DNA of 64,000 bases from assembly GCF_055900595.2 (NCBI RefSeq), contig NZ_CM148325.1; one strand, given 5' to 3'. Position numbers and translations under genes: made by a program. Position 1 is the stretch's first letter. Each line of letters begins with the position of its first letter. Below, piece by piece: positions 49,746 through 54,406 of the stretch. The notes under the pieces are model-generated. The model worked only from the letters and a program-made list of their open reading frames with translations. It had not been told where the DNA came from and did not search any database.

Positions 49746-50798
49746 ATGAAAAAGACCCGTACAGCTAATTTGCACCATCTTTATCATGAACCCTTACCCG
49801 AAAACCTGAAGCTAACGCCGAAGGTCGAAGTGGATAATGTTCATCAACGGCAAACAACGGATGTCTATGAACATGCTTTGACGATTACCGCCTGGCAGCA
49901 GATTTACGATCAGCTGCATCCGGGCAAATTTCATGGTGAATTTACGGAAATTCTGCTCGATGATATTCAGGTTTTCCGTGAATACACGGGGCTGGCGCTG
50001 CGTCAGTCGTGCCTGGTCTGGCCGAATTCGTTCTGGTTTGGCATTCCGGCGACGCGCGGTGAGCAGGGATTTATCGGTTCGCAATGTCTGGGAAGCGCAG
50101 AAATAGCGACGCGCCCTGGTGGAACCGAGTTTGAATTAAGTACGCCGGACGATTACACGATCCTTGGCGTGGTGCTTTCTGAAGATGTCATCACCCGGCA
50201 GGCTAACTTTTTGCATAACCCGGAAAGGGTGCTGCATATGTTACGTAACCAGTCGGCGCTGGAAGTGAAAGAGCAGCATAAAGCCGCGCTGTGGGGCTTT
50301 GTCCAACAGGCTCTGGCGACATTTTGCGAGAACCCGGAAAATCTCCATCAGCCTGCAGTGCGAAAAGTGCTGGGGGATAATTTGCTAATGGCGATGGGGG
50401 CGATGCTGGAAGAAGCGCAGCCAATGGTGACGGTGGAAAGCATCAGTCATCAGAGTTACCGTCGGTTGCTTTCCCGCGCCCGTGAATATGTGCTGGAAAA
50501 CATGTCCGAACCGGTGACGGTGCTGGACTTGTGTAATCAACTGCACGTCAGTCGCCGCACCTTGCAAAACGCATTTCACGCTATTTTGGGCATTGGCCCG
50601 AATGCGTGGCTGAAACGCATTCGCCTGAACGCCGTGCGCCGTGAACTGATTAGCCCGTGGTCGCAAAGTATGACGGTAAAAGACGCCGCCATGCAGTGGG
50701 GATTCTGGCATCTTGGGCAGTTTGCCACGGATTATCAGCAATTGTTTGCAGAAAAGCCTTCACTGACGCTGCATCAGCGGATGCAGGAACTGGAGTGA
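49746..50798 (+). CDS. eutR: AraC-family transcriptional activator of the eut operon
   Basis: 350 aa with a C-terminal AraC-type HTH. Confidence 0.93.
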
Positions 50799-50874
50799 GG
50801 GTGAGGGCCGGATGAGGATGGTGTTTGATCCGGTCCATAGTGAAGTTACAAATTACGTTGAATTGCTATGTATT

Positions 50875-51192
50875 TTATTGCCCAACGGGATAGGCGATAA
50901 ACAAACCGACAATTGTCAAAATACACGCCAGCAGGAATACCAACATACAATTTACGCGCTTTCGCGAAATTTTAAATAAATAGCAAAATAGTGTTGTTAC
51001 CACGATCACTACCGGGATAGTCATAAAATTAATAACGATGAGTGCTATCAATCCAAAACTTGCTCCTCCACCGTGGGGAATAAAAATGTGTTCTTCAAAA
51101 TAAACTTCTATAGCAAATGCCAGCACACATCCCAGAAAACTCATATCCAGATGAGGGTGCCATTTACTTTCTTTATGTGATGTGTCTGACAT
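50875..51192 (-). CDS. Hypothetical small membrane protein (105 aa, about 3 predicted TM helices)
   Basis: ATG preceded by a GGGAG SD; hydrophobic segments FLGCVLAFAIEVYF, FGLIALIVINFMTIPVVIVVTTLFCYLF, CMLVFLLACILTIVGLFIAYPV; 40 nt downstream of and co-oriented with the 420-aa gene. Confidence 0.6.
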   Translation of the reverse strand: MSDTSHKESKWHPHLDMSFLGCVLAFAIEVYFEEHIFIPHGGGASFGLIALIVINFMTIPVVIVVTTLFCYLFKISRKRVNCMLVFLLACILTIVGLFIAYPVGQ

Positions 51193-51232
51193 TCTTAAAT
51201 GCTCCCGTGAGCAAACTGGCGCAAAATAATTT

Positions 51233-52495
51233 CTAAGATTGCTGATAAGACGTCGCTGTTGTCCGGCACTCCGGGCAGATAAACGCGTAAATTATCCCTT
51301 CGCCGTATTGTTCAATATCGGCATAATCCAGTTGCGCAAGAAACATCATTGTGTGGGAACATTGCGGACAGAGAGGATATTCCGCGTCCTGAATCCAGGT
51401 TGGATGCCCGCCAAGTTGCGAGAAAGAGACAGGTAAAAATGGGTCTGCGGCAAATAACGGTGACCTAAGGTTTCCCTGTCTCATGCTGTTTACAGGGAGT
51501 CGACGCCATTCCGATACATCATCCGGCAGCCAGGCAGGCGGGATATTTTTTGCAGACAAATGAGCGTTACCCTTTGAGTCCATGTAGCCGAAAATGGTGC
51601 TGTAGGCGGTGCAACATTCGCAAGTCACGACGCGAAAACTGCCGTTATCGCTAAGACCCGTTGCCTTCAGGTCAACGTCGAAAAGATTTGTTAGTGGCAA
51701 TGCGCAATTTGGACAGGTATCGTTGCGTTCATCAACAACACGCAAAGCTTCGCAAGACCCGGTGCTTTTCATCTCCAGATGAAAACATTGAGGAAAATAG
51801 AGATTACGCCTTTGATCTTCAGCGGTTAACTCCCAACCGGCCTCATGCGCATATTCTTCAGGCTCGATGTAAAGGGAGCTGCGCCACGGCGGTGGGCTAT
51901 TGCGCCAGTGGGCAAAACGTTCAACGACAACGTCATCCCCAATCCATGCCAGACATTGCAGAATACAATTTCTGTTTTCTGCATCATCCTCAACCCGTTC
52001 TAACAGCCTGTCGCGTACATCTGTGGGGGCGCGGTGGAAAGGCATATAAGAATCATTGTCCAAATCATCGTAAGAGATCCATTCTCTGAAATAGGCATTC
52101 AGATTCGCCTGGGTAAATGCCGCCAGACAAAGGCAAATCTCCTGAGCGAGCTTATATTCACCAGATGCAAAGCGTTCTGTGGCGTAATCAGCCATCAGCT
52201 GCGCTTGATCGGTGGTCAGTTGTTGATACAGGGCATCTGTGGGAACGGGGCAGGGAGTCCAGTCGATTAACGCATCGAATTTCCGCGGTTGGTGAATTAA
52301 TTTCAGCATGACAACCGGATCGCTTAACCCTGCAAACGCATTCACGATCTTTTTGTTTTTCTTGATATATTCGTCGTGCTCACGTTGCTGTTGGGCCTGC
52401 TCGCAGGGCATGCAGTATCCGTTAGTACGCGCTGCGGTTTCCGGAAGAATGGTTGATATACAAGCGGGGCTTTTACAGGGAATACGGTGAGTCAT
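51233..52495 (-). CDS. Hypothetical cysteine-rich protein (420 aa) with zinc-ribbon motifs and a DUF1963/YwqG-like C-terminal region
   Basis: ATG with an AAGGAG SD 8 nt upstream; N-terminal C-x4-C...C-x2-C (CKSPAC...CMPC), internal CPNC...CECC, and C-terminal GGHPTWIQDAEYPLCPQCSHTMMFLAQLDYADIEQYGEGIIYAFICPEC. Family assignment is from memory, not a search. Confidence 0.7.
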   Translation of the reverse strand: MTHRIPCKSPACISTILPETAARTNGYCMPCEQAQQQREHDEYIKKNKKIVNAFAGLSDPVVMLKLIHQPRKFDALIDWTPCPVPTDALYQQLTTDQAQLMADYATERFASGEYKLAQEICLCLAAFTQANLNAYFREWISYDDLDNDSYMPFHRAPTDVRDRLLERVEDDAENRNCILQCLAWIGDDVVVERFAHWRNSPPPWRSSLYIEPEEYAHEAGWELTAEDQRRNLYFPQCFHLEMKSTGSCEALRVVDERNDTCPNCALPLTNLFDVDLKATGLSDNGSFRVVTCECCTAYSTIFGYMDSKGNAHLSAKNIPPAWLPDDVSEWRRLPVNSMRQGNLRSPLFAADPFLPVSFSQLGGHPTWIQDAEYPLCPQCSHTMMFLAQLDYADIEQYGEGIIYAFICPECRTTATSYQQS

Positions 52496-52633
52496 AGAGG
52501 CGCTCCTTGCCTGAGGATATTAAGTCGAAAGAGATTATTATTAGATATTAGGGTGTCACTATGGCACACAAATTAAAACAGCATTAATTTTATGCCACCA
52601 ACCGAGGGTTATTTTTCTTTTATTTTCATGATA

Positions 52634-53536
<903 letters not shown>

Positions 53537-54406
53537 TTACCGCTTTCTCGAGTGTGCTTTCTGGTTGTCAAACCAGTGGAAATAACTGATCACGCCTTCG
53601 GCAATGGCTGTGGCGATTTTCTGGCGAAATGCCGCCGTGCCTAACAGCCGCTCTTCTTCCGGGTTGGTGATAAAAGAAGTTTCCACCAGCACCGAAGGAA
53701 CAGATGGCGATTTCAACACTACAAACGCGGCTTGTTCGGTATTGCGGCTGTGCAGCTTATGCACCGGCTTAATCTTCTTCAGAATATGTGAGCCGAGCGT
53801 CAGGCTGTTTTTAATAGTATCGGTTTGTACCAGATCAAACAGCACTTGTTGCAATAGGTGATCCTTGTCAGTCGCTTTTTTACCGGCAACTTCATCAGCG
53901 CGGTTTTCGCGTTCAGACAGGTATTTCGCCATTGCGCTACTTGCCCCACGGTTAGAGAGAGCAAATACCGAAGCACCGGCAGCTTTCGGGTTGGTAAAGC
54001 CATCGGCATGAATTGACATAAACAGATCTGCGCCATGTTTATGGGCGATTTCAACGCGATCGTAAAGTGGGATAAACGTATCGCCAGAACGCGTTAAACG
54101 CGCATCAATGCCATGATTACGCAAAATGGAACGGACGTTTTTGGCAATTGCCAGCACCACATGTTTTTCTTTCGAACCGTTGCGACCAATCGCCCCGGTA
54201 TCAATCCCGCCGTGGCCTGGATCGAGAACAACGACACGTTTGCCGCCGTTTTTTTTTGCTTTCGGCTTGCTGTGTCCGTTGCTGGTTTTTAAAGGTTCTT
54301 CTTTGGCGATGGCTTGCGACATTCCTGACAACGTCAGGGCAGCCAATCCGGCTTTCAGCACCTGGCGGCGCGAAGTGAGTGTTTTTAGTGGTTTAAAAGT
54401 GCTCAT
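53537..54406 (-). CDS. amiA: N-acetylmuramoyl-L-alanine amidase A
   Basis: 289 aa with a Tat signal (TSRRQVLKAGLAAL) and Amidase_3 domain. Confidence 0.94.
   Translation of the reverse strand: MSTFKPLKTLTSRRQVLKAGLAALTLSGMSQAIAKEEPLKTSNGHSKPKAKKNGGKRVVVLDPGHGGIDTGAIGRNGSKEKHVVLAIAKNVRSILRNHGIDARLTRSGDTFIPLYDRVEIAHKHGADLFMSIHADGFTNPKAAGASVFALSNRGASSAMAKYLSERENRADEVAGKKATDKDHLLQQVLFDLVQTDTIKNSLTLGSHILKKIKPVHKLHSRNTEQAAFVVLKSPSVPSVLVETSFITNPEEERLLGTAAFRQKIATAIAEGVISYFHWFDNQKAHSRKR

Follow-up and report, generated by a model that had tools for sequence, protein, structure and literature searches.

The stretch of chromosome between hemF and eutR raises a question that has two parts: is the short, AT-rich open reading frame found there a gene and, if it is, does its small hydrophobic product work with the larger protein encoded beside it? 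The frame occupies positions 50875-51192, on the minus strand, of the window, by which is meant the whole 64,000-nucleotide stretch of contig NZ_CM148325.1 (RefSeq assembly GCF_055900595.2) that was analysed. It runs from an ATG start to a TAA stop, encodes 105 aa and corresponds to RefSeq CDS WP_032184838.1, which is annotated by PGAP as a hypothetical protein. It is called ypfK here, after the Pfam family to which its homologs are assigned.

Upstream of ypfK, also on the minus strand, lie a gene for a 420-aa protein (51233-52495) and the housekeeping gene hemF (52634-53533); amiA is two genes upstream of ypfK in the window annotation. On the other side, eutR (49746-50798, plus strand) is convergent, with its stop codon 76 nt from that of ypfK. 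On its left the islet is bounded by hemF in every enterobacterial locus, and on its right by eutR in Escherichia and Salmonella. The 420-aa gene has its stop at 51233 and is separated from the start of ypfK by a spacer of 40 nt (51193-51232, minus strand), compared with 15 nt in Kluyvera, 19 nt in metagenome contig L018 and 92 nt in Klebsiella. Within the 40-nt spacer, a Shine-Dalgarno-like GGGAG can be read at 51202-51206 (minus strand), 9 nt 5' of the ATG, and this motif is also kept in the E. coli strain EPEC E2348/69. A start at Met17 was dismissed, since Salmonella has an isoleucine at this position and no Shine-Dalgarno sequence lies 5' of Met17. ypfK has a GC content of 38.4% and a GC3 of 35.8%, as against 49.5% and 49.9% for the 420-aa gene and a GC content of 53.2% for the window. 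The original prediction, which had described a 105-aa ORF with a good Shine-Dalgarno sequence and a low GC content, 40 nt from the 420-aa gene, was thus accurate on all of these points. A consensus scan of positions 50600-53700, including the 40-nt spacer, found no promoter- or terminator-like motif. The region 3' of ypfK contains no convincing terminator (fold z = -1.0), and no Rfam family was found within 50500-52800. A spacer of 40 nt free of promoter or terminator motifs is compatible with co-transcription, with read-through from hemF or from the 420-aa gene.

The length of the frame is by itself weak evidence that it is a gene: when the 434-nt gap was dinucleotide-shuffled 5000 times, 70 of the shuffled sequences (1.4%) contained an ORF of at least 105 aa. 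The decisive evidence is its conservation. ypfK is carried by 25 of 5426 complete E. coli genomes (0.46%), including EPEC E2348/69; in each of the 25 the ORF is complete, aligns without gaps (95-100% identity) and has been annotated as a CDS. Among 5.8 billion protein clusters, a search retrieved full-length homologs with 55-98% identity from E. coli, E. fergusonii, E. albertii, Salmonella enterica, and Kluyvera georgiana, and contig look-ups together with a profile search added orthologs from a Klebsiella sp. (50% identity) and a metagenome (44%). In comparisons with the EPEC, Kluyvera, Klebsiella, and Salmonella orthologs, dN/dS ranges from 0.16 to 0.24, and pN lies far below pS in each comparison (Fisher p 8e-3 to 6e-12). 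The number of variable alignment columns at the three codon positions (68, 51, and 101 of 105) follows a coding-type pattern. At least four genera (Escherichia, Salmonella, Kluyvera, and Klebsiella) thus have intact orthologs that are subject to purifying selection, as would be expected of the real gene that had been proposed, and it can be said with high confidence that ypfK is a genuine protein-coding gene maintained by purifying selection.

Damaged copies are found in some genomes, as is usual for an accessory gene. Examples are the E. albertii copy, which is frameshifted in its N-terminal part, a Salmonella locus (L005) in which 12 aa of the second transmembrane segment (TM2) are deleted, and frameshifted or truncated fragments. 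In the E. albertii copy (L010, 4940-5317), in which the N-tail is frameshifted and replaced, a new ATG restart yields a 95-aa product that keeps the three helices, which may reflect either a dispensable N-tail or a gene in decay.

As judged by sequence, the window ORF can be regarded as a typical member of Pfam family PF26378 (YpfK). This membership is indirect and was established via a cluster and the labels of homologs, the scanned Pfam-A library being evidently older than PF26378. The homologs at 88-98% identity and all other full-length homologs (44-98%) bear the precomputed label PF26378 "YpfK", and the window protein falls within the same 90%-identity cluster as P0004, which bears this label too. 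Against Pfam-A (in the library without PF26378), NCBIfam, PADLOC, and PDB sequences, YpfK gave no significant match, and nothing among the PHROGs scored under E = 0.1. With a YpfK profile, eight hits were obtained among 1.84 billion representative proteins; apart from fragments, they make up about three full-length clusters at 50% identity. All hits that could be traced are enterobacterial, and remote homology in the same collection revealed no parent family. Copies were not found in phage genomes, plasmids, or viral contigs. The YpfK family therefore appears to be an uncharacterised family that is restricted to Enterobacteriaceae and exclusively chromosomal. It is already catalogued, as a RefSeq hypothetical protein and as Pfam PF26378, with no published function, and none of the papers in the library that was searched refers to the gene.

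The original prediction of three hydrophobic helices holds for two of them, at residues ~47-72 and ~81-101 (mean Kyte-Doolittle 2.4), and only in part for the first. The protein begins with a hydrophilic, His-rich N-tail (residues 1-16, 51145-51192, minus strand; SHKESKWHPHLD), predicted to be cytoplasmic and disordered (pLDDT <50). Helix 1 (residues 17-38, 51079-51144, minus strand; helix 13-32 in the AF2 model) is only marginally hydrophobic, with a mean Kyte-Doolittle value of 1.5, because it holds about three conserved acidic residues, including the invariant Glu29. Gly21, Ala25, and Phe32 are also invariant in this helix, and Cys22 nearly so. The first loop (residues 39-46, P-x-G-G-G-A-S-F, 51055-51078, minus strand), in which Gly42, Gly43, and Phe46 are invariant, is predicted to be periplasmic and lacks lysine and arginine in all orthologs. 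Helix 2 (residues 47-72, 50977-51054, minus strand; AF2 helix 47-72) is a strong transmembrane segment, with a mean Kyte-Doolittle value of 2.45 and with invariant Asn55 and Pro60. It is followed by a basic loop (residues 73-80, K-I-S-R-K-R-V-N, 50953-50976, minus strand) that contains the invariant Arg77 and is predicted to be cytoplasmic. Helix 3 (residues 81-101, LLACILTIxGLFIAY, 50890-50952, minus strand; AF2 helix 79-100), also a strong transmembrane segment (mean 2.35), is the best-conserved block of the protein, and only a four-residue C-tail follows it. Glu29, Asn55, Pro60, Cys22, and Cys90 are the conserved polar or special residues within the helices. Over 13 orthologs, lysine and arginine together average 2.7 residues in the N-tail and 2.9 in loop 2, as against 0 in loop 1 and 0.5 in the C-tail, a distribution from which the positive-inside rule gives an N-in/C-out topology. 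YpfK is thus probably a three-helix inner-membrane protein with its N-terminus in the cytoplasm and its C-terminus in the periplasm. The AF2 model built with the 13 orthologs places helices at 13-32, 47-72, and 79-100, with low confidence (pLDDT 55).

The neighbouring 420-aa protein combines an N-terminal C4 zinc ribbon, HEAT/ARM-like repeats, a C-terminal TYPP (DUF1963/YwqG-like) beta domain, and further CxxC pairs. Its Pfam match to DUF1963 is weak. Across its family, the zinc ribbon is invariant and is accompanied by the further CxxC pairs, a GGHP motif, and an invariant Gln, so that the protein displays the GGxP motif, the conserved Gln, and the two-repeat YwqG-like beta fold that characterize TYPP/DUF1963 proteins. 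The AF2 model (pLDDT 94.4) has a YwqG-like TYPP fold together with HEAT-like repeats. Judged from this model and its domains, the protein consists of protein-binding modules only, with no recognisable enzymatic or toxin domain, and it has no match in PADLOC. In the TYPP 'family 2' of Burroughs and Aravind, a Zn finger is combined with a helical domain and a TYPP domain; for TYPP domains in general, a protein-binding, chaperone-like role has been inferred, and fusions of the YwqG family to transmembrane regions have been noted (PMC4275035).

The 420-aa family is well conserved (~420-435 aa) and is found in a few enterobacteria, Chitinimonas, Verrucomicrobia, Planctomycetes, and Clostridium, and above all in Paenibacillus. 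Paenibacillus and Clostridium also dominate the GTDB species representatives carrying the family, only three of which are enterobacterial. The identity between the 420-aa protein and its Gram-positive relatives is about 40% over the full length, and this value, together with the phyletic pattern, suggests that the family has spread horizontally.

The case for a tie between the two proteins comes from comparison of their loci. Each inspected YpfK locus adjoins hemF and either a TYPP gene or a TYPP relic. The order hemF-TYPP-ypfK is found in E. coli, E. albertii, Kluyvera, Klebsiella, and metagenome contigs L018 and L019. In Salmonella enterica (L021, 137-1872), the order is swapped to hemF-ypfK-TYPP, with ypfK starting 20 nt past hemF. 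Even there the two genes are co-oriented, as they are wherever ypfK is present. In another Salmonella locus (L006, 4579-5200), ypfK is intact and TYPP is reduced to a C-terminal relic of about 50 codons behind it, and in L007 (4817-5991) a 67-codon N-terminal TYPP relic overlaps the start of an intact ypfK. The L007 locus also encodes, after ypfK, a 223-aa protein homologous to a 221-aa protein of an E. coli locus described below (L011), which hints at an ancestral three-gene set made of TYPP, ypfK, and the 22x-aa protein. The two genes have similar inter-genus dN values (0.26-0.42 for ypfK and 0.34-0.37 for TYPP), both about four times that of hemF. The genetic coupling to the 420-aa gene that had been anticipated from a single locus is therefore recovered in each ypfK lineage, as adjacency and co-orientation that persist even where the gene order is swapped, and this survival through a swap is the best evidence that comparative data offer for a functional ypfK-TYPP tie.

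This tie appears to be one-sided, most members of the TYPP family doing without YpfK. An HMM search of 80 TYPP loci from GTDB species-representative genomes found no YpfK homolog (0/80), and a small multi-TM neighbour on the same strand was present at only 2 of 78 GTDB TYPP loci. hemF-TYPP arrangements with neither ypfK nor a ypfK relic occur in Yokenella, Superficieibacter, and UBA3516, and in three E. coli genomes a soluble 221-aa protein follows TYPP in place of ypfK. An alignment scan of GTDB species-representative genomes with YpfK itself gave no match. A short hydrophobic query might be masked in such a scan, but the TYPP scan and the HMM search did find representative TYPP loci, which lack ypfK, so that the null result is attributed to rarity rather than to a failure of the tool. 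All enterobacterial loci share a single chromosomal site, and the adjacency could therefore also be explained by common descent. On balance, the comparison of loci tips somewhat in favour of a functional link between YpfK and the TYPP gene.

The original prediction had placed ypfK in an islet, and the comparison of E. coli chromosomes bears this out: beside the 25 carriers among 5426 complete genomes stands K-12, in which only 5 nt separate the eutR stop codon from that of hemF, with no islet relic detectable. From the variants found at this site, the hemF|eutR junction emerges as an apparent small variable hot spot in E. coli. In strains 2017-02-2CC and WL297 (L011 and L012, positions 147-2440), an alternative islet carries TYPP and then the soluble 221-aa protein, which matched nothing in Pfam, NCBIfam, or PADLOC; the opposite strand carries a Tli3-family type VI secretion system (T6SS) immunity gene and SEL1/TPR repeat genes. 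In EPEC E2348/69 (L013, 4295-6651) and in L007 (6121-9564), a ~1147-aa SNF2-family helicase (DUF3670/DUF8276) is encoded beside TYPP-ypfK. It matches ZorD and DpdE in PADLOC, as well as the SCO1167-family helicase of NCBIfam, the NCBIfam matches lying below curated cut-offs, and it may be a defence gene located in the same hot spot. The flanks in the window (49746-54406) are themselves unusually divergent from K-12, with a DNA identity of 93.8% for hemF (dS 0.29), 94.0% for eutR, and 95.0% for the 3' part of amiA. The whole eutA-hemF block may have been imported, together with the islet, by recombination from a divergent Escherichia lineage.

Taken together, the reading favoured here, tentatively and at a little under even chances, casts YpfK as a lineage-specific partner of the TYPP protein in the membrane, whether as its anchor or as its client. 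ypfK and the gene for the 420-aa cytoplasmic TYPP protein would form a two-gene module, probably transcribed together from the hemF side. The peptide-binding cleft of the TYPP protein would bind the cytoplasmic N-tail of YpfK, its basic loop, or both, and the outcome of this docking would be either that the TYPP protein is tethered to the membrane or that YpfK is its dedicated client. The analogy is with the eukaryotic TYPP proteins PDCD2/Tsr4, chaperones devoted to one client only, uS5; PDCD2 is described as a dedicated uS5 chaperone (PMC7736825). This particular docking or client mechanism, drawn by analogy, is more doubtful than the partnership itself and has to be considered unlikely in its details.

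In a first alternative, YpfK would act on its own as a small membrane protein, for example as an accessory of the envelope or the stress response expressed by read-through from the amiA-hemF operon, and its adjacency to TYPP would be a historical accident of one insertion downstream of hemF. All enterobacterial loci do lie at the same site beside hemF, and in Salmonella ypfK comes 20 nt after hemF and ahead of TYPP. ypfK also stays intact where only a relic of TYPP is left (L006), and TYPP homologs elsewhere have no such neighbour. Nevertheless, an accident of insertion does not readily account for an adjacency that persists through a swap of gene order, nor for two genes that both evolve with a similar and unusually fast dN, about four times that of hemF. 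Several damaged YpfK-family sequences also speak against it, though anecdotally: the TM2-deleted YpfK is found in a Salmonella locus (L005) where the TYPP gene is missing, and frameshifted or truncated fragments occur as well. A stand-alone role is thus unlikely, but it deserves to be kept in mind.

The variable nature of the site brings in a second alternative, in which the pair would belong to a conflict system, with YpfK as a membrane immunity protein or an effector acting against a membrane-targeting toxin, a T6SS effector, or a phage, now left as an orphan in the hot spot. Strain-level patchiness (0.46% of complete E. coli genomes), low GC and GC3, and fast evolution would all fit, as would the company kept by the site elsewhere: the Tli3-family T6SS immunity gene with SEL1/TPR genes and, in other strains, the SNF2 helicase resembling ZorD and DpdE models. 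The size of YpfK and its three-TM N-in/C-out layout are also like those of the colicin E1 immunity protein. Against this, ypfK has neither a toxin nor an effector gene next to it in the window, where a bacteriocin or T6SS immunity gene would be expected beside its cognate toxin, and no immunity or defence family is matched. Neither protein has a match in PADLOC, Pfam, or NCBIfam (for YpfK in the library without PF26378, and with only the weak DUF1963 match for the 420-aa protein). There is no copy in plasmids, phages, or viral contigs, and the family is confined to one place in the chromosome, whereas mobile immunity genes are not so confined. Neither an enzymatic nor a toxin domain is present in the neighbour, and an obligate toxin/antidote pair is argued against by the fact that each gene occurs intact without the other. 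A conflict role is therefore improbable, and the proposal that ypfK encodes an effector or an immunity partner finds no backing in its gene neighbourhood, in the PADLOC models, or in the protein-binding modules of its partner.

The original prediction had also suggested a holin-like pore former, that is a toxic protein that would depolarise or permeabilise the membrane. Its 105 aa and three hydrophobic helices do superficially recall lambda S105, and an amidase gene, amiA, lies two genes upstream. However, AmiA is a housekeeping amidase of the periplasm that all E. coli have, whether they carry the islet or not, and the context is not that of a phage or a lysis cassette. YpfK is absent from phage, viral, and plasmid collections, and no PHROG matches it at E = 0.1. 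Its predicted topology is opposite to that of a holin, its four-residue C-tail is not a charged cytoplasmic tail, and it has no dual-start motif. In some Salmonella, ypfK is intact without its neighbour, which is hard to square with an unneutralised toxin. This reading is therefore very improbable, and none of the labels immunity protein, effector, or holin is supported for YpfK. Weaker still, the idea that the ORF is a chance untranslated open frame in AT-rich intergenic DNA can practically be dismissed: it could draw on a length that is only modestly unusual (70 of 5000 shuffles), on an orphan family with no detectable relatives, and on a poor structure model, but it is contradicted by strong purifying selection, by coding-type variation across codon positions, by conservation across genera between which dS is saturated, and by the intact ypfK of all 25 E. 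coli carriers.

In its most certain part, the finding is correct but fairly ordinary: a suspicious low-GC ORF turns out to be a real, selected gene, and its product is a conserved hypothetical small membrane protein. What is added is that this orphan membrane protein has its gene at one and the same place in the chromosome, where the gene for a TYPP/DUF1963 protein, or a relic of that gene, is always the neighbour. The result is a concrete hypothesis, namely a genetically linked candidate partner for a bacterial TYPP protein in a tractable strain, EPEC E2348/69. If the partnership with the TYPP protein is true, YpfK would be the first identified partner for bacterial TYPP/DUF1963 proteins, in parallel to the PDCD2-uS5 pair. 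It is a long shot that the locus represents an undescribed bacterial module, in which TYPP would be the dedicated adaptor or chaperone of one small membrane protein, or else a fast-evolving conflict module of a new kind, situated at the hemF|eutR hot spot.

Comparison with known systems places these readings in context. Class I holins such as lambda S105 are proteins of about 105 aa with three hydrophobic helices. They have an N-out/C-in topology and a charged cytoplasmic C-tail, whereas YpfK is predicted, by rule, to have the opposite topology, with a C-tail that holds about 0.5 lysine or arginine residues on average. In addition, class I holins are encoded in phage lysis cassettes, beside an endolysin, whereas ypfK is flanked by hemF, the TYPP gene, and eutR. 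The toxins of type I toxin-antitoxin systems were rejected as a model as well: they are shorter than 60 aa, have a single TM segment, and are paired with an overlapping antisense RNA, in contrast to the 105 aa and three helices of YpfK and to a 50500-52800 interval with no Rfam family. The ColE1 immunity protein, which acts against a pore-forming colicin, is a small inner-membrane protein of about 113 aa with three TM helices, possibly arranged in the same N-in/C-out layout as YpfK. YpfK differs from it in that it is not plasmid-borne, has no adjacent bacteriocin gene, and shows no similarity to any family in the Pfam library without PF26378.

The likeness to PF26378 concerns protein and locus alike. 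In their length (105-109 aa), their helix layout, and their position beside hemF, the members of this family agree with the window protein, whose gene lies on the downstream side of hemF and beside a TYPP/DUF1963 gene. As for the TYPP superfamily, a separate small membrane-protein partner has not been reported, and the survey of these proteins has only YwqG-TM fusions (PMC4275035). Its eukaryotic members have as their client a ribosomal protein and not a membrane protein. The 420-aa protein encoded beside YpfK shares with TYPP family 2 the same architecture, in which a Zn finger is followed by a helical domain and a TYPP domain (PMC4275035).
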